This document shows, piece by piece, positions 10,989-45,332 of a stretch of 64,000 bases of DNA. Each line of letters begins with the position of its first letter. Within the stretch, counting starts at the first letter, position 1. The notes below the pieces were generated by a model. That model worked only from the letters and a program-made list of their open reading frames with translations, ran no database searches and was not told where the DNA came from. This DNA comes from Barthelona sp. PCE (Eukaryota), in NCBI GenBank assembly GCA_040285745.1, contig JAUFOR010000003.1, positions 558,001-622,000 of the forward strand, in the 5' to 3' direction. A program made the position numbers and the translations under genes.

Positions 10989-13607
10989 ATGCATGTAGAA
11001 TCACAGGAAAGTAACGTTTATGATAGACAAAACGGTCCAATTGATGGATTTATAGAAGAGTCATCTTCCAATGCTGGTCAAAATAGGCGAAGACAGCTTT
11101 TGAAAGATATTCAGATCAATGCCACAACACTTGCATCAGAAAGCCAAGCTGAAGCACCAATTTTGAGTCGTGAACAATTTCGTTTTGTTATGGGTCGACT
11201 TGTTCATGTAATATTCAGTGGTATTAGGTTATACGAGCCCGAGGAATGCCTTGATTTTAGCCGTCTTACCCTCATTTTTAGCAGAATAGCTCTTGTTCTG
11301 TTACCAACATTTATTGCTGCATTTTGTACACTTCTATCCATAAATCCTTATGTATGCATTGGTATTATCTTTTTTATTATCCTTATTGCATTTGTTTTCA
11401 TTCAGAGACGTATAAAATTTAATGATTACAAAAAGTTTTGGTGTAGATTACAATCTCCTTTCATAACACACACATATTTGCTCTGTTTTGTGCACACTGT
11501 GCTAATATGTATAGAATTTTTTCTAATTTTAATTGTTGCATCAGAACACACAACATATTGTTTATTATTATCCCCGTTAATACATGGCTCTATAATCTTG
11601 GAGCCACCCGTTGAGATGAACGCATCTCCTAATGCACACTTTATTGATCAGTATTTGAGGTTCAGTTTTATGCTGAGTTTAAGTATTTTTCTCCAAAACC
11701 ATCGAGTGTATTTTATTATTGTATATGTGTTGTTGACACTTGGTTGTTTTGCCCCCTTAACAGAGATACCAAGGGGTATGATGCGAATGTTGAAGTTTGC
11801 ATTGGGGATGGGCGTAAACTCTCCCCCGAGTAGATATGGTTTCAAAATGATTGGTTTTTCAATTATTTGTTCAGTTGCATATGGAGGCAAATCTATGGAT
11901 TATATAGTGATTGCGTATATGGCACATTTCAACATCCATGCAATTTTCAAACATCCTCGGAGAAAATCAACGGTTTTGTTATTTCTTTTTTCCATTTCAT
12001 TGTTTACTCTTGCAAGGTTATCGACAGAAAGAATTCCAATTCAACCATCGCTGTATCTAATTCTCCCTTATTATTTATACTCATTCGTAAAAAGAGACCC
12101 TCACATATTTTTGTTTCAAAGTTTTGTAACTCCATTATTGGTGGTCATGTTTTTAGATTTAAGAATTCAAAATCATTTTCCAATATCAGCTATTACAGCA
12201 CTCAATTTATTGTTCGCTCATCCAACGGGTATCATTGGGGTTGTTGTTTTACGCTCATTTAATTTTGTTTATTCAAATAATTCTATGATAATTTTCTCTA
12301 TCTTAACATGGTATGTTACAATGAATATAATAGTGAGTTTGTTGGCCTGGGTAACAGTATTTAAAAACCATGGGAGAGGAAGAAAGGTAACTGTATGGAG
12401 TTTAATATTTTTCCCAGTTACGTTAATTTCAGTTGTTGTAAGTTCTGTATTATTGATTCCTTGTCATTTCCTTTTTGGTCTTCCAATACTACTCCCCGTT
12501 GCCCAGATACCACCCATATATTCATTTAAGACATTTGTTGTTAGTGAAACACCAGAAAAAAGTCCTGCCTATCGAAAATTATTTCAACAAATTCAGACTA
12601 TGTTTACTTCATGGTCTCTTTATAGTTTGGAGAACCATTTCTTGGCCGTGGTACCAGAAACAGGACACGTTATCCTGGGAGAGTGCCGTTTTAAAAATTT
12701 CAACAGTGAACAGATTGTATTACGTGGTTTAGAATTGCAGGACGTAACAAGTTGTCATGCAGTAGAAACCAGAGCTCTCTTTAATAAGATTAAAGAACGA
12801 AAAAAAGTTGGTCTTGTGCTCCAATATATTTGTTCCAAGTTTTTAGATATCGACGTATATCAGAATCAGGCATTGCCTACCTTAAAGAACGCAGATCCTT
12901 CACTGTTTTGGGGGTTGTTTATCAAATGTTTGTACTATCACGCCAACGCTGTTCACTATGATGATGATAAAGTAGCTTTTTCGGATCTTACGAATTTGCA
13001 AGTGGATGATTTTGATTTTATGTTTAAGAATGTCCGTGGTGAATGTATATCTGCGCTTTTGGATCGTCTGGGATGTATGAATGCTTTTGATTATTATGAT
13101 AACCTTTTTAGATTAGCTTCTTTTAATGATTGTGATGAAGATGAATTTACTGTACGTGAGAAACAGATAATCAGTAACGCAGCCAAGAGCAGCATCTTTC
13201 TCGCGTATATAGAGGTGCTTATGATGGGAAAACCAAGCGAATATGACAGTTATTCGTTTGTTGATTTTTTGGAGGGTTGTTTGTTTGATTGGAACATTTG
13301 TTTGAAGGGTGAAAAGAGCCCTACCAACTCTAAGAAGACGATTTTCTTTGATATTGGAGGCGATAAATGGTCTTCAGTTTCCATCACACCACAAACAGCA
13401 GAAGTATATATTGCGATCATTAATTCCAGTTTGGTGAGGTTTCATCATGCTGCTTTGCGTTTTGAGATGTGTTTTTGTGGAGTTAATGATGAGGAACGAT
13501 ATTCAATGCAAAGCAATGAGAGTTATTATCGAAACTTGATTATGTCAGCTGCACGTCAACCGTTTGGTTACCCCGTCACAGAAAATGTGGTTTCAAAGAC
13601 ATTTTAA
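10989..13607 (+). CDS. Pecanex-family membrane protein (PCNX4-like)
   Basis: Many TM segments; Pecanex_C motifs RGLELQDVTSCHAVE and NDEERYSMQSN..YYRNLIMSAARQPFGYP. Confidence 0.85.
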   Translation: MHVESQESNVYDRQNGPIDGFIEESSSNAGQNRRRQLLKDIQINATTLASESQAEAPILSREQFRFVMGRLVHVIFSGIRLYEPEECLDFSRLTLIFSRIALVLLPTFIAAFCTLLSINPYVCIGIIFFIILIAFVFIQRRIKFNDYKKFWCRLQSPFITHTYLLCFVHTVLICIEFFLILIVASEHTTYCLLLSPLIHGSIILEPPVEMNASPNAHFIDQYLRFSFMLSLSIFLQNHRVYFIIVYVLLTLGCFAPLTEIPRGMMRMLKFALGMGVNSPPSRYGFKMIGFSIICSVAYGGKSMDYIVIAYMAHFNIHAIFKHPRRKSTVLLFLFSISLFTLARLSTERIPIQPSLYLILPYYLYSFVKRDPHIFLFQSFVTPLLVVMFLDLRIQNHFPISAITALNLLFAHPTGIIGVVVLRSFNFVYSNNSMIIFSILTWYVTMNIIVSLLAWVTVFKNHGRGRKVTVWSLIFFPVTLISVVVSSVLLIPCHFLFGLPILLPVAQIPPIYSFKTFVVSETPEKSPAYRKLFQQIQTMFTSWSLYSLENHFLAVVPETGHVILGECRFKNFNSEQIVLRGLELQDVTSCHAVETRALFNKIKERKKVGLVLQYICSKFLDIDVYQNQALPTLKNADPSLFWGLFIKCLYYHANAVHYDDDKVAFSDLTNLQVDDFDFMFKNVRGECISALLDRLGCMNAFDYYDNLFRLASFNDCDEDEFTVREKQIISNAAKSSIFLAYIEVLMMGKPSEYDSYSFVDFLEGCLFDWNICLKGEKSPTNSKKTIFFDIGGDKWSSVSITPQTAEVYIAIINSSLVRFHHAALRFEMCFCGVNDEERYSMQSNESYYRNLIMSAARQPFGYPVTENVVSKTF

Positions 13608-13684: not shown

Positions 13685-16519
13685 ATGTCATACAGGGATC
13701 ATCTAGACGAGGAGACACGCAAACTGCTCGAAGAGCTGGATGCAGGGAGTTCTATTACAAAGCCGTCCGTTGTTGGTTTTGAGGACTATAAATCATTTGA
13801 TTCGTTGAATACGCCAAGTGACAGCAGCGACGATGATATCGATGGGCTTTTAAATAATTATCTTTCTGTTTCTAATAATCAATTGTCAACATATGTTGAT
13901 GATTTCGACGATTTGGTTACCATAAACGTGGGAATAGAGGCCCCAGCCTCTGGGAAGGAGCGCGAACTTGATTTTGACCTTGATGAAGTAGATTTAGGCT
14001 TTGAGGTTGAAGTTTCAGATGTTTCAGATCGAGAGCTCCTTGGTTCTGTCGTGCTTGAGGATGTGAGCCCCGTGGCAAAACCTCTAACATCTCTGATTGG
14101 CATAATCGACGAGTTTGATCATAGTGATATTTTGACAATGCCTTCTGTGGAAGTTACATCAACTGATCTAATTGAAAAGAAGCTTTCCGAGATCACCCAC
14201 ACACTTGTACCACTATCTGTTGAACCTGATGTACTTGATGTATCTGATGTAGCCTCGGAACAAGAGTCTGAATCAGAAGTTTTGGTTAATAACGAAGAAG
14301 ATCATATCATCAAAGAAAAAAAGCCGCAAATGACTGACATTTTTGCAGCAGCACTCAAGGAGAACGAAGTCGTGAATGCTAGATTGCGTGAAGAAGAGGC
14401 TTTGAAAAAGAAGGCAGATGACCATGCTCGTCACCAACAGGAGATAAAGAAGCGTGAACGAGAACAAAAAATAGCTGCGTTGCAAGAAAAGCAAGAGAGA
14501 ATGAATCGTGTAAGGATGGCCAAGCAGCAAGCTGAGGCAAAGGCTAAAAAAGCCTTGGAAGAGCGTGAGCGAACGCAGCAACGATTATCTCGCCCGTTCA
14601 CAAGCAAACCTTTTCCAGTTGATGTCAAGAAGATGAGTTCCCTTGTTTATTGTCCTCTTTTTACAAAATCATCGCAGAAACCGTCACAAACGGTTGTTCC
14701 TGCCCGGCAAACAACGCAAGAGGTTACGATATCAGTAGCTTCTGACTTTTTGGGTTTGAATGCCAAATTAGTAACTTCGCTCACACTGCATTGCGATGTT
14801 CCAAGGCAATCATCGTTCATGGCACGCTTTGAGAGACTTACAGAGCTCATTATTGATGGTGTTTCCATTGTTGAGGTGGAATCTATGCTGAAAGAGTCAA
14901 GTTTCTCTCTTCAGTCCTTGTCAGTTAAGAATGCAAGCCTCGTATCATTTGATGGTATAGCAACGCTGAAGTGTATGCAAAAACTAAACGCAGTTACGTT
15001 GGAAGACGTGAAGCAGGTACGATTGGGAACGTTGATGGATCTACCGTTGTCTTCTCTCACATTTATTAGAGCAGACGCTCCATACTTCGAACAAAATGGG
15101 AGAATAGCACAGCAGCTTACGCATATCAAGTGCGTGGAGTGTGAATTACCAGTGATAGAGGTGAAACCTCATGCAATGTTGCGTTCATTTACTGTGGAAC
15201 GATGTGCGGCACGGCGTATTTCGTTCAACACTGGATCATTGAGCGAGTTACAAATGCTAAACGTCAGCGATAATCCTCTTCCAATTGAGTGTCTTTTCGA
15301 CATGTGTCGTGCACTTGGACCGTTCTCTTTGCGTCAATTGTCGGTTGAGGGAATATCTGGAACGAACCAAACGGTTAAAGAAGTACTATGTGGATATTTC
15401 TCACAATTGACACACTTAAACAACCGTGTTGTCTCTGTGGATAACAATATAGCTGTTATTCGTGCCCGAACAAGCGTTTTGAACTACAACAAGTTGAAAA
15501 GAGCAGAAGAAATCAATTTCTCAAGAGTCAGGTGTATAGATTTTGTTCACAATGCAGGTGCGTTTTTCATTCGTTTTGCTGAGGATCAGGTGCAAAAGAG
15601 AGCACGAAAGGCTGCACTTGAAAGAGTAATTGAGTATTGTAAGCTGTATCAAAGCGCTGTTGCCACAAAAGTCCTCAGCCAGTTTGTTGAGAATATATGG
15701 TTGCCAAGCTATAGAGGGCACCGTAACTGGGCTGCCACAACAATCCAACGAGTTTTCCGTGGCTATGTCATCCGGAAACGGTATGGAAAAACGGCATCAG
15801 ATGATCTAGATCTAGATCTAGATCTAGATTTGGATTTTGATTTTGATATTGATGCAGTTACCGAGAACAAAACGTTTGATTTAGACGACTTTGATCTGCC
15901 AGAGTTGCCAAAGGTGAGGAGCATACCGGTTTTTTCGGAGATTTCATTTGAAGCACCAGTTACACCAAGTACTCATCGTTCATCTGTTGATGAGGAGAAT
16001 CTGCGGTCGATTGAGAACGATATAATAGCCAGGATCAGACCTGTACTGCCCAATGCACCGTCGTATGACGACCTGGAATCGATTGCTTCCCTAAGTAGCC
16101 ATCAAAGTGCAATGACGGACGAGATACCGCAGGTTCGAATCTCCAACCGTAAAGAAGAAGTTAATCCTTACGTAAGTGAGGCTCTAACAGCAGCAGCTAA
16201 GGATTGGCAATTCGATGATGATCCTGAAGTTATGCGGGCATACTACCAGCGAAATAGACGATACAAAAAGTTTACAAATAAGGACAAGAAGAACCGTGCC
16301 ATGCGTGATCCTGTTAAGCGGTTCACTGTACTACAAAAGAAGTTGTTGAAACAAAATAGACCAGTAGCTGAACTTTCTCATCTTAATTCGAGCGTTTTTG
16401 ATGTAGAATCATCGCCGAATTCATCAAATTTGAATAATTCTGATCATCCAACAAGGAACTTGGTTACAAAGCGAAAAAAGCAAATGAATATGAACGTTAC
16501 TTCGATTCAGTGGGATTAA
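13685..16519 (+). CDS. LRR and IQ-motif protein (LRRIQ1-like)
   Basis: Acidic N-terminus, coiled coil, LRR-like repeats (LQMLNVSDNPL), IQ motif AATTIQRVFRGYVIRK, C-terminal DWQF...DPVKRF block. Confidence 0.7.
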   Translation: MSYRDHLDEETRKLLEELDAGSSITKPSVVGFEDYKSFDSLNTPSDSSDDDIDGLLNNYLSVSNNQLSTYVDDFDDLVTINVGIEAPASGKERELDFDLDEVDLGFEVEVSDVSDRELLGSVVLEDVSPVAKPLTSLIGIIDEFDHSDILTMPSVEVTSTDLIEKKLSEITHTLVPLSVEPDVLDVSDVASEQESESEVLVNNEEDHIIKEKKPQMTDIFAAALKENEVVNARLREEEALKKKADDHARHQQEIKKREREQKIAALQEKQERMNRVRMAKQQAEAKAKKALEERERTQQRLSRPFTSKPFPVDVKKMSSLVYCPLFTKSSQKPSQTVVPARQTTQEVTISVASDFLGLNAKLVTSLTLHCDVPRQSSFMARFERLTELIIDGVSIVEVESMLKESSFSLQSLSVKNASLVSFDGIATLKCMQKLNAVTLEDVKQVRLGTLMDLPLSSLTFIRADAPYFEQNGRIAQQLTHIKCVECELPVIEVKPHAMLRSFTVERCAARRISFNTGSLSELQMLNVSDNPLPIECLFDMCRALGPFSLRQLSVEGISGTNQTVKEVLCGYFSQLTHLNNRVVSVDNNIAVIRARTSVLNYNKLKRAEEINFSRVRCIDFVHNAGAFFIRFAEDQVQKRARKAALERVIEYCKLYQSAVATKVLSQFVENIWLPSYRGHRNWAATTIQRVFRGYVIRKRYGKTASDDLDLDLDLDLDFDFDIDAVTENKTFDLDDFDLPELPKVRSIPVFSEISFEAPVTPSTHRSSVDEENLRSIENDIIARIRPVLPNAPSYDDLESIASLSSHQSAMTDEIPQVRISNRKEEVNPYVSEALTAAAKDWQFDDDPEVMRAYYQRNRRYKKFTNKDKKNRAMRDPVKRFTVLQKKLLKQNRPVAELSHLNSSVFDVESSPNSSNLNNSDHPTRNLVTKRKKQMNMNVTSIQWD
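15803..15829. repeat. (GATCTA)4 coding microsatellite, self-complementary, encodes DLDLDLDLD
   Basis: gatctagatctagatctagatctagat read directly. Confidence 0.9.
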
Positions 16520-30641: not shown

Positions 30642-31905
30642 TTAAGAATATTGTTCGACAGGAATCACTTCAGGAAGGGGAAGAATCTCAACGCCCAGTT
30701 CTCTTTCGACTTCATATAACGTAATCTTGTCACGATCTGTGACAAAGTTAACAGCAATAGCACGAGTACCAAAACGTCCACCACGACCAATACGATGCAG
30801 ATAAGTAGCAGCATTAGAGGGGAAATCAAAGTTAAACACGACATTGACCTCAGGAGCATCTATACCACGAGTGATTAAATCAGAGGCAACGAGGAATCGG
30901 ATCTTACCTGATCTGAAATCTTGGAAAACACGATTACGCTCGTGCTGGGTCATTTTTGAGTGTAGATGGAAAGTAGCATAATCAAGTTGAGTGAGTTTTC
31001 TGGAAAGAAGTTCAACTCTACGAACACTGTTGCAGAAAATTACACATTGAGAAAGCTGAAGTTTTGTCATGAGGAAGTGGAGACATTGCAGCTTTTGATT
31101 CTCATCAATATAACCATAGTACTGAGTGACACCCTCGAGGATGAGCTCGTTCATAAGGTTAACTTTCTTAAGATCCTGTCCACTTCTCATGAAACGGTTA
31201 ACGAATGCTCCAACGGACTCTGGATATGAAGCAGAGAACAGGGCAGTCTCGTGTTCAGGTAAGTGGGTGAAGACGTTGGCGATGTCTTCTCTGAACCCAG
31301 TTGAGACAAGCTTGTCTGCTTCGTCCAAAACAACAGCAATGAGATTATTGGTCTTGATAATCTTACGACGAAGGAATGAGACTAAGCGGCCAGGGGTTGC
31401 GACGACCATGTGTACCTTCTGCTTGAAACGTAAGATATCTTGTTGCCAATTTCCACCTCCAGTGGTACAAACAACCTCAAAACCATCAATAAATTTGCCG
31501 AGTTCTTTGGCAACGTTGGAGGTTTGGAGAGCTAGTTCACGGGTAGGAACGATAATAATAACTTGAGGATTGAAGATATCGATGTCAATACGTTCAATGT
31601 AGGGAATAAGGAATGATGCAGTTTTTCCCGTACCGTTTTTGGCACGGACAAGGACATCTTTGCCAAATAGAATGTGAGGAATTACTTCTTCTTGAATAGG
31701 TGAAGGGTTTTCGAAACCCTTTTCAACGATGCCCATAAGGAGCTCCTGTTGCAGGTTCCAGTCTTCAAACTCGATGCCTTTGGTAGCTAGTACATCCTAA
31801 ATGTGAGAAAATGTTTGTGAAAAAAAATGATGCAATTGACCCAATTGTACGTCGTTTGCCCATGAACTGTTAACAACATACGTCTGTGCGGTATACTTCA
31901 GTCAT
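30642..31905 (-). CDS. DDX6: DEAD-box helicase DDX6/Dhh1; exons 31882-31905 and 30642-31796
   Basis: Spliced product MTEVYRTD|DVLATKGIEFEDWNLQQELLMGIVEKGFENPSPIQEE; AKNGTGKT, PTRELALQ, DEAD, HRIGRGGRFG. Confidence 0.95.
31797..31881 (-). other. Spliceosomal intron, 85 nt, phase 0
   Basis: GTATGT...TTCTCACATTTAG; removal restores the conserved DDX6 N-terminus in frame. Confidence 0.9.
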
Positions 31906-34752: not shown

Positions 34753-34939
34753 GAAAACATTTGTAAAAAAAAATTTCATTTCTTCTCAACCATCTATTTA
34801 GGAAGTGTCCCAGGAACCCATTTCCATTCCAGGCACAGTATCCACATGGTAAAAAGTGAAATAATAGAAAACAGACAATAAATTTCTCCTTTCTGTTTTC
34901 TTACTTATTTTGTTCTCTAAACATTTAAAAAACACCAAG

Positions 34940-35903
34940 ATGGCTACTACTTCTTTAACCAACATGCGTCGTATCTGCATTGATAAGTTGTCTATCAACA
35001 TTGCGTTAGGTGAGGCTAGCGATAAGGTATGTGTTATTTTCGAGCTTACGAGAGATTTATAAGGTAACGTGACCACTTTTTGTTGAAGAAAAGCAGCAAT
35101 ACGCAGATATATATTTTCTTAATGACTGCATTTTAAGGTTTCTGTTGTTTTTATGTGCACAACGTGTTTAACACAGCACTGTAACGATCTATTCCAAACT
35201 AAAATGCTCTTTGACGTCTGTGTGAGGATATAGAATTTCTATATTCAGCCATTCTCTTAGAAATGTCTCTTTTGAACTTTTAATTCTCTATTTGTGATAT
35301 ACACAGCCCACTTTGTTGTATACAAAGTCTCAAGAATGTTTTCTTGATGATTTTCTTACTTTTGTGTGGAAGCACTTTATTTTCAAACAATTATATTGAT
35401 GGGATACCATCCGCGTTATTCATTTAAACTTCTCAAAGCTATTGAAGAGACTTTAAACTCACATTTAGGTTGTCAAGGCTGCCCGTGTCCTTGAGGCCCT
35501 TACCGGTCAGAAGCCCGTCTTCGCCAAGGCCAAGCTCACCCGTCGTGGTTTCAACGTTCGTCGTGGTGAAGTTATTGCCACCTACGTGACCCTCCGTGGC
35601 AAGCGCGCTCACAACATCCTTACCAAGATTCTTGATGTCAAGGACAACTCCCTTCCCTCTTCCTTCTTTTCCAAGGAAGGTAACTTCAGTTTCGGTATTG
35701 AAGAGCACATTGATATCGAGGGACTTTCTTACGATCCTTCCATTGGTATCCATGGTATGTCCGTCACTGTTTGTCTCAAGCGCCCTGGTGGTCGTATCAC
35801 CAAGCGTCGTGCCCGTCGCGCAAAGATCGCCCCCCAGCACCACGTTACTGCCGACGAAGCCCGTCAGTGGTTTGTTGAGGAGTTCAACGGTCAACTCTTC
35901 TAA
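34940..35903 (+). CDS. RPL11: 60S ribosomal protein L11 (uL5); exons 34940-35026 and 35469-35903
   Basis: MATTSLTNMRRICIDKLSINIALGEASDK|VVKAARVLEALTGQKPVFAKA...GNFSFGIEEHID...YDPSIGIHGM; strong C/T-ending codon bias. Confidence 0.97.
35027..35468 (+). other. Spliceosomal intron, 442 nt, phase 0, structured
   Basis: GTATGT...ACTCACATTTAG; joins the two RPL11 exons in frame. Confidence 0.93.
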
Positions 35904-36012
35904 GTTGCCTTTTTGATTGGTTGTTTTAGTAAACAAGTACAGAACTTTCTCAGTTTTATAAGGTTGCACAAGAAATTAAACATTACATTACTCTGCTTTT
36001 ATTAAACTAGTA

Positions 36013-38122: not shown

Positions 38123-38716
38123 ATGGGATGTTTCGGTTCATCAGCGCGTCGCGCATATTACAGAAAGGTGGTGATTGCTGGATTGTACGTTGTATTGCAA
38201 AATTGCAAAAAAATCATATTATTGCTAATATTTAGAAGTAACGCCGGTAAAACCACGTTAGTGAAGCGATTGTTACATCCGGAAATCTCGCTTCATGCGG
38301 AGTCTGCCCCCCCTGCCACAATTGGAATCGAGTCATCCACAGGAACACTTCGTGGAGTACCTTTTAATCTTGTAGATCTCTCAGGTGCAAAGGCATTTCG
38401 TTTCCATTGGGCCAATTATCACCCAATTGCCGATCTAATCATTTTTGTAATAGATGCTGCAGATTACGATGCCCTTCCGGAGGCAGTACAAGTGTTAAAG
38501 GAACAGATCCTTGACAACGAAAAGTTGAATCACATTCCACTGCTGATTGTGGGCAACAAGACAGATAAAGCAGGTGCAATAGGTTGTGAACAACTCTCTA
38601 GTTACTTAATCAATGTTAACCAGAATGAAAGGACGTATGACGTGTTAAGTACAAGTGCTATCACAGGACATGGAACTCAACAGGTTGTTATGAAACTCCT
38701 AGAGTATTGTGAATAG
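38123..38716 (+). CDS. Arf-like small GTPase (possibly ARL6/BBS3-related); exons 38123-38184 and 38236-38716
   Basis: MGC N-terminus; splicing gives P-loop GLSNAGKTT; TIG, DLSGA, FVIDAAD, GNKTD, TSAITG. Confidence 0.85.
   Translation: MGCFGSSARRAYYRKVVIAGLYVVLQNCKKIILLLIFRSNAGKTTLVKRLLHPEISLHAESAPPATIGIESSTGTLRGVPFNLVDLSGAKAFRFHWANYHPIADLIIFVIDAADYDALPEAVQVLKEQILDNEKLNHIPLLIVGNKTDKAGAIGCEQLSSYLINVNQNERTYDVLSTSAITGHGTQQVVMKLLEYCE
38185..38235 (+). other. Spliceosomal intron, 51 nt, in frame and stop-free, splits the P-loop
   Basis: GTACGT...GCTAATATTTAG; removal restores GLSNAGKT. Confidence 0.9.
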
Positions 38717-42266: not shown

Positions 42267-45200
42267 CTATTCTTTGTTTTTGGGGTTAAAAAGAAAAGAA
42301 GTTGTTGGAGCAAAATTACAAATAGGATAACCATAAGGCATGCTAGTGGAACTGACCAAAAGGTTACGAAGGAACATTGGGTTAGATTGAATAGATGCAC
42401 GTTCTGTTTGAGTACTCCTCAAAACAAGAATTTCCTGCACGGTAGAAGCCCAAAAATGTCTTACAGTATGTTCTTTAACTGTAGCTACAAAGAATGCTTC
42501 ACTAGATAGTTGATGGTTGACGATCTCATAGACTTCACCGTTCTCATTCCTGCTGGCTGCAATTGAAATACGACGAGGAACCTTTGAATACAGCCATTCA
42601 TTAGAATTGAAAGCGGCAAAAAACACCTCCTTCTTTATGTATGCCTTAAACAAAAAGTTGTAAAGATCTTCATTATTTGAATGCTCAGAAACAGTATAAT
42701 TGTATGATTCTAATGTGAGATACAACGAAAGCCGTAATGATTCACATATGACATTATAATACTGGTTGTAGCTTGGCAATTTTTGATCTCTGGGAATATT
42801 TGAAGCAACATACTGTTTCTCAAAACCCATGAGAAGTACACGGCCAATAATATCTTTGGTGAAATCAGCCTGTTTGCCAAAATCATGCTTACCCAAACTT
42901 GTTACCTGCTTAAGATAATTTGCATTGGCCAATAATTGATATCTCAACTGCTGGATAATTTGAACAACTTGCACACAGTCACAGCTGGGGAGAGTCCCGT
43001 TGTGATCGAGTTGGTAATTGACAAGCTTCTCAAGACAATGAACACTGAATGATTGATATCGATCAACTTCATCAGCATTAAAATGAGCAAAGACATCATT
43101 ACCCTGAAGGAAACTTGAGTCAGCGTAAGCTTCCTCAGCCAATTTAGGTACATACCCGAAGAATTTAGGTGAACAAAGTACAAAAGCAGCAGCAAATTCA
43201 AACCATTTTATGAAGCCTATTAAACGATCATTATCAATCAAAATATTGTTTAGATTCATCTTAGCACTTGATGTACTATCAAAATGAAGATCGTATTGGG
43301 CAGGTTTTAAGTTTGAAATAGGATTACCAATAAAGATTGCTCGACCGATGTTGCCCAAATACGAATCACTAATTGATGATTTGTCGTACATTTCCTGAAC
43401 AAAACTCATTTCAGTAGAATGACAAGGTGTAGAGTTTAACTCTAAACAACGAGCTTGGAAACGTACAAATCCTACGCCAATTTCTATAACATGAACAAAA
43501 ACTACGTGATTCATGTTGGTGATCATAAATATTACACCAGGATAAAGGGGTACATAACCGTATCGACCATAGAACATATCTCTGCTGATTGATTCACTGA
43601 TCGTTTGATTGATGCGAACATAGAAGCCAATATCATTGGATGAGCCACCGCCTTGTTGGTCAACCTGGAATTTTTCAGGGTATTTATCCCAGAATTTACG
43701 CTGACGGAAACCAGCAGGCATATAAGCAGGCCAAGCACCAGCAAATGCATACGTTGTTAGATCAAGGATACCCGCAACAGCTAAGAGCAGAACAAAGAAA
43801 GGAATCATCATGAGGGAGATAATGTGATACTTAACAGCACCAAAGTCACCCATACAAGAGAACGAAGAATATGTGAACTTGATGTAAACAATGGCTCTGT
43901 ATACCTTGACGACAATCATTGAAATCAGAGGAGAAGCGAGAACAAAATCATAGATGTTGAAATAGGGAGCTAAATCCATTTCAACAACTGCATACGACGC
44001 AAGTGCAAGAACTGCATTCAGGTATGGTGTCTGGAATGCACGACGAGCAAAGTAGAAACAGGAGCAAAGTACAAGGATGCTACTCTTGTCACTGGTTTGT
44101 TCAAAAGCCATTGTGAGAAGCATGGGCATAATAACAATACATGAAATACCTTGGAATAGAAGCATAATTTTGGAAACAAAACTTGGCTTATCAAACGTGT
44201 ATTTGGGAGCAGCGAAACCGTTTGATGTATCAGTCTCGATACTATACGCTTTAAATGAGAAATTCCCCCAAAAATAGTGAGGAATGTTTGCCATACGACC
44301 GGGGATCAAAATATTTGCCAAGTACAACAAAACAATATATATCACAATAAGAATCTTGAAATCTAATACGGCTGGAACAAACATAGCTGAAGCAAAAGTG
44401 ACACCAACCAAAGCCAATATCATGCTTACATTTTTTCCCGTCATTCGCATATCCGAAGGAATACCACTGAGAGCGACTGCCCAAGCAACTAACATTGGGA
44501 TTCGTAATTTTTCATCTAACAGAGTAACAGAATACAAAACACCGGCAGAGACGGAGCAAAGCAAGGTTAGTCCCCAGAAAGAGGTTGCAGCAGATCCACC
44601 AAAGACGTAAATGTGAATTTGTTCCAGCACCCAACCGAGAAAAGCTTTAGGGTGGGTGACAAGTCCAATCAAAACAATGAATGGCATCAGACCCAGCATA
44701 TATGTAAAGATGGTGTTTGTATAAGATGTATATCTAGCAACATCGACAGCAAATGATCCAAGATAATACGTTCCAGTCGGGTTATACTCCTTTATGAGCA
44801 TAAGAACTGCTGCACAGAAGACAAAGTAAAACGCGTTTGACATGAGGTCAAGCGGTTCATCACCACGTTGACTACCAGAACGTGGCTCAGCAATACAAAA
44901 GAGAACTACACCTGATGATGCAAATCCGATTGTTGCTAAGATGAACTTCCATCCGTAAATTGATGGTAAAACATTAGCACCTGTATAAACAAGAGCAAAA
45001 CTGAGCAAAATTCGACCAATAGTGACAAGAAGTGGTGATCTGGTGAGAACCTTAGAATATTTTGCCTGATTGACGAAAATGGATGCCACAACTAGTAATG
45101 CAATTGGCAATGATACTGCCATATATCCGAAAAGGTAGACGGGTGCGTCTGATAACCCCATAACCAAGCCAGTGATCCAGAATAGTATGAATGCGAAGAA

Positions 45201-45332
45201 TTTAATAAGTACTTCAACTGGAGAACGCTCATAGAGAAAAGAGAAACCAAACAGACTGGAGAAACCATTGTATGGCCAAAACGTGAAGCAACTCTCATCG
45301 TCGTGCGATAGAAGAAAGTCACCAGCTTCCAT
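42267..45332 (-). CDS. Pecanex-family membrane protein (PCNX1-3-like)
   Basis: LEQIHIYVFGGSAATS, VHVIEIGVGFVRFQARCLELNSTPCH, VRHFWA...ERASIQSN..FLRNLLVSS...PYGYPI. Confidence 0.88.
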   Translation of the reverse strand: MEAGDFLLSHDDESCFTFWPYNGFSSLFGFSFLYERSPVEVLIKFFAFILFWITGLVMGLSDAPVYLFGYMAVSLPIALLVVASIFVNQAKYSKVLTRSPLLVTIGRILLSFALVYTGANVLPSIYGWKFILATIGFASSGVVLFCIAEPRSGSQRGDEPLDLMSNAFYFVFCAAVLMLIKEYNPTGTYYLGSFAVDVARYTSYTNTIFTYMLGLMPFIVLIGLVTHPKAFLGWVLEQIHIYVFGGSAATSFWGLTLLCSVSAGVLYSVTLLDEKLRIPMLVAWAVALSGIPSDMRMTGKNVSMILALVGVTFASAMFVPAVLDFKILIVIYIVLLYLANILIPGRMANIPHYFWGNFSFKAYSIETDTSNGFAAPKYTFDKPSFVSKIMLLFQGISCIVIMPMLLTMAFEQTSDKSSILVLCSCFYFARRAFQTPYLNAVLALASYAVVEMDLAPYFNIYDFVLASPLISMIVVKVYRAIVYIKFTYSSFSCMGDFGAVKYHIISLMMIPFFVLLLAVAGILDLTTYAFAGAWPAYMPAGFRQRKFWDKYPEKFQVDQQGGGSSNDIGFYVRINQTISESISRDMFYGRYGYVPLYPGVIFMITNMNHVVFVHVIEIGVGFVRFQARCLELNSTPCHSTEMSFVQEMYDKSSISDSYLGNIGRAIFIGNPISNLKPAQYDLHFDSTSSAKMNLNNILIDNDRLIGFIKWFEFAAAFVLCSPKFFGYVPKLAEEAYADSSFLQGNDVFAHFNADEVDRYQSFSVHCLEKLVNYQLDHNGTLPSCDCVQVVQIIQQLRYQLLANANYLKQVTSLGKHDFGKQADFTKDIIGRVLLMGFEKQYVASNIPRDQKLPSYNQYYNVICESLRLSLYLTLESYNYTVSEHSNNEDLYNFLFKAYIKKEVFFAAFNSNEWLYSKVPRRISIAASRNENGEVYEIVNHQLSSEAFFVATVKEHTVRHFWASTVQEILVLRSTQTERASIQSNPMFLRNLLVSSTSMPYGYPICNFAPTTSFLFNPKNKE

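Follow-up and report, generated by a model that had tools for sequence, protein, structure and literature searches.

A predicted end-to-end helix in the RPL11 intron of Barthelona sp. PCE and its possible role as a zipper stem

The two ends of a 442-nt intron in the uL5/RPL11 gene of Barthelona sp. PCE can pair with each other in a thermodynamically stable helix, and this pairing exceeds chance by a real but moderate amount, about 1 in 250 to 1 in 2000. We lean towards reading the helix as a distance-shortening ‘zipper’ stem, and we infer that it would form in vivo and promote splicing. The 3′ arm, once transcribed, would pair with the 5′ arm and the 340-nt interior would loop out; GTATGT and CTCACATTTAG would stay single-stranded, tethered within about 15–22 nt of chain. 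Pairing of the intron ends by a probably reduced spliceosome would be made as easy as in the short introns of the host, and the helix would also conceal decoy signals in the looped-out interior.

The uL5/RPL11 gene and its 442-nt intron

The window, the whole 64-kb stretch of DNA that we analysed, comes from Barthelona sp. PCE, which is not a diplomonad but a barthelonid metamonad; the genus is placed in Metamonada incertae sedis. According to PMC11316075, Barthelona and the skoliomonads are together sister to Fornicata, and the 10.2-Mb Barthelona genome is the smallest reported for a free-living eukaryote. Translation of positions 35469–35900 matched the NCBI protein PCE1_001215 (hypothetical protein, Barthelona sp. 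PCE) with 100% identity over 100% coverage. This 173-aa protein is encoded on a 1.59-Mb contig and contains the Pfam domains PF00281 (Ribosomal_L5) and PF00673 (L5_C), and by these sequence matches the gene that carries the 442-nt intron is uL5/RPL11. When the same translation was compared with a large protein collection, all source-named matches besides the Barthelona entry were archaeal L5 proteins with at most about 50–52% identity, and the majority of the matches were unnamed. The restriction of named matches to archaea probably reflects the content of the collection rather than the ancestry of the protein.

Two runs of a single study each gave a contig, of 599 and 589 nt, in which position 35026 is followed directly by 35469 and no other letter differs (Table 1). 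The contigs span 34905–35945 and 34913–35943, respectively, which is the extent of an mRNA. Both runs are small and recorded as ‘DNA?’, with no run on record as RNA listed; they are coded as different organisms and yet contain an identical spliced RPL11 contig, so they are not independent of each other and possibly not of the source of the assembly. Each run also has a second, diverged RPL11-like contig, which touches only 35679–35714. The deposited 173-aa protein reads ...GEASDK/VVKAARV... (the slash marks the junction), that is, exon 1 joined to exon 2 with 35027–35468 removed. Because the spliced contigs and the deposited gene model agree, the junctions are settled, and both the RPL11 identity of the gene and the intron boundaries proposed in an earlier sequence-only reading of this DNA were correct. 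The intron is contiguous in one gene and is cis-spliced: the exons and the intron lie side by side and the spliced contig joins them, and there are no separate loci for two halves, as there would be in a Giardia-type split intron.

Table 1 Features of the uL5/RPL11 intron and of the comparator introns (positions in the window; linkers are given as 5′ part + 3′ part, with the 3′ part counted to the putative branch A at 35461)
Feature	Position	Strand	Linkers (nt)	Basis
Exon 1 of uL5/RPL11, 29 codons, MATTSLTNMRRICIDKLSINIALGEASDK	34940..35026	+		Deposited 173-aa protein starts with these residues; spliced contigs start at 34905 and 34913
Phase-0 spliceosomal intron, 442 nt, GTATGT...CTCACATTTAG	35027..35468	+		One contig per run (X1, X2) skips exactly 442 nt, GT..AG, 0 mismatches; protein junction ...ASDK/VVKAAR
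5′ splice site GTATGT	35027..35032	+		Sequence; same hexamer in the 85-nt intron, GTACGT in the 51-nt intron
5′ arm of the end-to-end helix	35033..35071	+		RNAfold, ensemble pair probabilities, RNAduplex
Helix segment GTT/GAC	35033-35 with 35449-51		6+9 = 15	
Helix segment TTTTCG/TGAAGA	35037-42 with 35443-48		10+12 = 22	
Helix segment AGCTT/AAGCT	35043-47 with 35436-40		16+20 = 36	
Helix segment GAGAG/TTCTC	35050-54 with 35430-34		23+26 = 49	
Helix segment TTTA/TAAA	35056-59 with 35425-28		29+32 = 61	
Helix segment GGTAACGTG/CGCGTTATT	35063-71 with 35412-20		36+40 = 76	
Looped-out interior, 340 nt, without recognisable element	35072..35411	+		Fold versus shuffles, Rfam, window self-search
3′ arm of the end-to-end helix	35412..35451	+		RNAfold, ensemble pair probabilities, RNAduplex
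Fused branch-point/acceptor motif CTCACATTTAG	35458..35468	+		Exact 11-mer twice in the window, both at intron 3′ ends
Exon 2 of uL5/RPL11, 144 codons + TAA	35469..35903	+		Match to PCE1_001215, Pfam PF00281 and PF00673
Comparator intron, 51 nt, GTACGT...CTAATATTTAG, Arf-family GTPase gene	38185..38235	+		Motif and protein homology only; removal restores P-loop (..AGL/SNAGKTT..)
Comparator intron, 85 nt, GTATGT...CTCACATTTAG, DEAD-box helicase gene	31797..31881	-		Motif and protein homology only

The interior of the intron yielded little when searched for elements of its own. Folded alone, its 340 nt gave z = −1.52, with 24 of 300 shuffles folding as well, which suggests that the ends are the structured part of the intron. 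A search against Rfam families gave only three chance-level hits for the intron and its surroundings (cut-off E = 10), none at gathering score in the whole window, and nothing resembling 5S rRNA or another known motif within the intron; the interior also contains no C/D box pair. These searches thus found no snoRNA or other RNA hosted by the intron. The 64-kb window holds no repeat of any stretch of the intron (best non-self hit 18 nt, E = 0.08). A perfect 8-bp hairpin with a 1-nt loop, ATATAGAA/TTCTATAT, lies mid-intron at 35228–35244. Strings that resemble the branch/acceptor motif occur as decoys at two places in the intron, TTAACACAG in the looped-out interior (35168–35176) and CTTACGAGAG inside the 5′ helix arm (35045–35054).

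Geometry and stability of the helix

RNAduplex places 32 bp in the helix, 25 of them Watson–Crick and 7 G-U. Its six segments are separated by bulges of 1 nt and 2 nt (one each) and by 2x1, 1x1 and 3x4 internal loops. The helix opens at the first base past GTATGT and stops 6 nt (TTTAAA, 35452–57) short of CTCACATTTAG. All six segments had been proposed from the letters alone, together with the start and end of the pairing, and every one of them was recovered at the same coordinates in the sequence and by RNAduplex. Owing to its interruptions and G-U pairs, the helix was missed by a search for gapless inverted repeats.

The unconstrained minimum free energy (MFE) fold of the whole intron (RNAfold, −93.5 kcal/mol) includes the helix, and in the ensemble 29 of its pairs (35037–35071 with 35412–35448) have probabilities of 0.62–1.00. 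It was kept when the first 6 and last 11 nt were forced to be single-stranded (MFE −92.5 kcal/mol), at 20 °C, and in 34 of 40 versions in which the interior was shuffled. Calculated without dangling ends, the energies are −22.3 kcal/mol for the full helix, −13.7 kcal/mol for the inner 18 bp (35050–71 with 35412–34) and −7.0 kcal/mol for the outer 14 bp. The placement fits a zipper role, because neither the 5′ splice site nor the branch motif is engaged by the strongest parts of the helix.

One feature of the predicted ensemble points the other way. In the naked, unconstrained RNA, AUGUG of the 5′ splice site (35029–33) pairs with CACAU of the branch motif (35460–64), which includes the putative branch A, with a probability of 0.53–0.66, and such pairing would inhibit splicing, not help it. 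This counts against a zipper stem and favours a helix that is regulatory and inhibitory, as does the position of the outer helix, which by the account in PMC12350175 would be too close to the signals for the yeast A complex; regulatory structures in yeast ribosomal-protein introns have also been published (PMC12311795, PMC13232506). Against an inhibitory role, only fully spliced contigs were seen, although contigs cannot show the absence of retention, the intron has no known motif of the 5S-rRNA-like or any other kind, and no alternative, mutually exclusive structure was identified. We regard inhibition as very unlikely. The same AUGUG/CACAU motif pair is present in the 85-nt intron of the window and absent from the 51-nt intron.

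We then weighed the zipper stem against pairing without function, in which the intron ends are complementary by chance and the spliceosome copes with 442 nt. The statistic was the duplex energy of the 44 nt after GTATGT against the 51 nt before the branch motif. At −25.0 kcal/mol, this duplex is far below the mean of dinucleotide shuffles (−11.85 kcal/mol, sd 2.85) and was matched by 1 of 2000 of them. The whole intron folds with z = −2.28, and 1 of 100 shuffles was as good. Among pairs of segments of the same size and spacing across both strands of the 64-kb window, 25 of 1312 attained −25.0 kcal/mol, a background that is not matched for composition and that speaks for chance; after restriction to pairs in which each arm differed by no more than 6% in G+C from its real counterpart, 5 of 1327 same-geometry pairs did so. 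Also on the side of chance, this is a single intron (n = 1) with a nominal P of 0.0005–0.004, for a feature chosen by a reader seeking oddities. We nevertheless take the excess as real, if moderate, because the location of the helix was fixed beforehand by the splice signals and not searched for, which leaves little room for a search effect. Of 3486 long-range pairings of segments inside the intron, moreover, none is stronger than the end-to-end pair (the runner-up among independent pairs reaches −19.9 kcal/mol), and PMC12350175 and PMC6679479 describe this arrangement for yeast and for three lineages of metamonads. Chance complementarity seems unlikely to us. The excess of G-U (7) over A-C (1–2) juxtapositions was not significant after allowing for the U-rich composition (P about 0.08, a hand estimate from base counts), and we dropped this asymmetry as a sign of selection at the RNA level.

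The arms may instead have a history as DNA: a MITE-like element, inserted into the gene’s intron or having created it in the manner of an introner, would have left them as its decayed terminal inverted repeats, with any help to splicing as a by-product. Transposon-derived introns with inverted ends exist, and this intron shares with introners ends that are inverted repeats of each other. At the DNA level, the two arms match at 26 of 39–41 columns, and the antisense strand still pairs at −18.9 kcal/mol; this possible DNA-level inverted repeat is a point against the zipper stem, whereas the better pairing of the sense strand (−25.0 kcal/mol) counts in its favour. The age of the intron bears on the same question. 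In a metagenome scan, 80 loci matching the 173-aa protein were kept, none of them from a barthelonid (best protein identity 58%). Eleven of the 80, eukaryote-like RPL11 loci, were inspected by tblastn, and in none of those that cover codon 29/30 was there an intron at that position, so the intron is not obviously ancient. Within the 64-kb window it has no other copy and, unlike introners, it has no target-site duplication, as the arms lack a flanking direct repeat (flanks ..GTATGT and TTTAAA.., by eye); its splice signals lie outside the repeat, and its interior holds no ORF of note. An origin from such an element appears quite unlikely.

Short introns of the window and the collapsed length

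Among the 36 ORFs of at least 150 aa in the window we found three introns, including introns of 51 and 85 nt that the sequence-only reading had named as a yardstick for the long one, and which were located at 38185–38235 (+) and 31881–31797 (−). All three start with GTA[TC]GT and end with CT[CA]A[CT]ATTTAG. The presumed branch A lies exactly 7 nt before the end in each of them (motifs at 35458–35468 (+), 31797–31807 (−) and 38225–38235 (+)), which puts the putative branch point of the RPL11 intron at 35461. PMC6260720 describes the same fused branch/acceptor geometry and spacing in Trichomonas. Neither short intron is significantly structured (z = −0.26 for the 51-nt and −0.68 for the 85-nt intron, 1000 shuffles each); of the three introns in the window, only the long one is.

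In constrained folds at 37 °C, the 51-, 85- and 442-nt introns have 37, 48 and 23 exterior unpaired nucleotides, respectively, which supports the proposal that the long intron would collapse to a size no larger than that of the short ones. The fit is not exact: the predicted collapsed length of 23–30 nt falls short of the 51-nt intron, a mismatch that weighs against the zipper stem. It had also been suggested that the spliceosome has a strict length limit, but a single long intron is no basis for one. Lengths of 51 and 85 nt, a 1.7-fold difference, both occur in introns that lack significant structure, and thus any such limit would lie above 85 nt.

Several observations accompanied the intron search. 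In the Arf-family gene, the 51-nt intron keeps the reading frame and contains no stop codon, and a plain ORF call reads through it; if retained, it would add 17 residues in the P-loop without truncation. A 104-nt candidate intron on the minus strand (42813–42710, GTATGT...CTCACATTAG) was rejected because it is in frame inside a 1021-aa ORF, and a 97-nt candidate at 14973–15069 because no frame is open across it. Loose motif-plus-ORF scans gave hundreds of chance candidates, which were excluded from the counts. The 1021-aa ORF (42270–45332, −) and an ORF of 872 aa (10989–13604, +) both have a C-terminal Pecanex_C domain (E = 2.7e-18 and 1.5e-8, respectively) and may be paralogues about 30 kb apart.

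Comparison with zipper stems and split introns

A zipper stem is a known kind of structure; for barthelonids we found no earlier report of intron structure by title or abstract, and in the text of PMC11316075 the word ‘intron’ occurs once, in the methods. In yeast, zipper stems are found mainly in long ribosomal-protein introns and are supported by DMS data, and the stem of RPS17B is essential for efficient splicing (PMC12350175); that of RPL7B is a splicing enhancer (PMC12311795). At 32 bp, the helix is long enough for a zipper stem as PMC12350175 defines it. The positional rule derived there from modelling of the A complex (at least 10 nt, at least 20 nt, 42–85 nt of linker) sets the two apart. 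Measured to the putative branch A, the full helix of the RPL11 intron leaves 15 nt of linker, pairing from 35037/35448 leaves 22 nt and pairing from 35043/35440 leaves 36 nt; only the inner 18 bp, with 49 nt, satisfy the rule. By analogy with yeast, then, the full helix would be too near to the signals, which is an argument against a zipper stem, and the RPL11 intron further differs from those of S. cerevisiae in having its branch point fused to the acceptor (7 nt). Under the zipper reading that we favour, either the outer 14 bp (−7 kcal/mol) would melt at spliceosome assembly and leave an inner stem of 18–23 bp, or the footprint of the spliceosome would be smaller; the second option would agree with the short collapsed lengths published for Trichomonas.

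The closest likeness is to the long introns of other metamonads. Stems in long cis-introns of Giardia lamblia, S. salmonicida and T. vaginalis bring donor and acceptor to within 35–45, 41 and 25–44 nt, respectively (Hudson et al. 2019, PMC6679479), so the precedent in long diplomonad cis-introns that had been invoked for the RPL11 intron is in print, for Giardia and Spironucleus and also for Trichomonas. Like these, the RPL11 intron belongs to a ribosomal-protein gene in an intron-poor metamonad genome, where the 5′ splice site is rigid and branch point and acceptor are fused in one motif; its predicted stem is stable and leaves the splice signals single-stranded, and the path between them shrinks to a few tens of nucleotides (23–30 here, against 25–44 in T. 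vaginalis in PMC6679479). It differs in its barthelonid host, in being long, with a 340-nt looped-out part, and in the interruptions of its 32-bp helix, and its collapsed length is shorter than, not equal to, the shortest intron seen (51 nt, three introns compared). The compared metamonad long introns have an acceptor motif of the ACTAACACACAG type, and the motif here is CTCACATTTAG.

A functional helix would extend structure-assisted splicing of long introns to a free-living lineage beside Fornicata, and reliance on the pairing of intron ends would track intron poverty and spliceosome reduction, not parasitism. The short linkers (15–22 nt) then make a concrete prediction about how large the spliceosome footprint is in these organisms. 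As a lone example, the helix adds modestly to a known theme, and with only one long intron we make no claim of generality. A wider proposal, which we find tentative and somewhat doubtful, is that barthelonids would share with diplomonads and parabasalids a need to clamp every intron of more than roughly 100 nt end to end, the reduced spliceosome being able to pair a donor only with a branch site that already lies nearby. The tighter abutment than in the yeast A complex would then reflect a smaller footprint, and the trait, ancestral or repeatedly evolved in the sampled metamonads, would have been a pre-adaptation for the trans-spliced introns of Giardia.

In those introns, the two ends are kept together by complementary stretches that adjoin the donor half and the branch/acceptor half (PMC6679479, PMC10711314), a precedent that the sequence-only reading had cited correctly. 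The authors of PMC6679479 propose that stems of long introns could precede fragmentation into trans-spliced halves; the idea that the RPL11 intron is such a precursor is speculation carried over from that literature, and nothing in the window bears on it. Like the Giardia halves, the RPL11 intron has complementary arms next to the donor and next to the branch/acceptor motif; unlike them, it carries both arms on one transcript of one gene, where they accompany ordinary cis-splicing.
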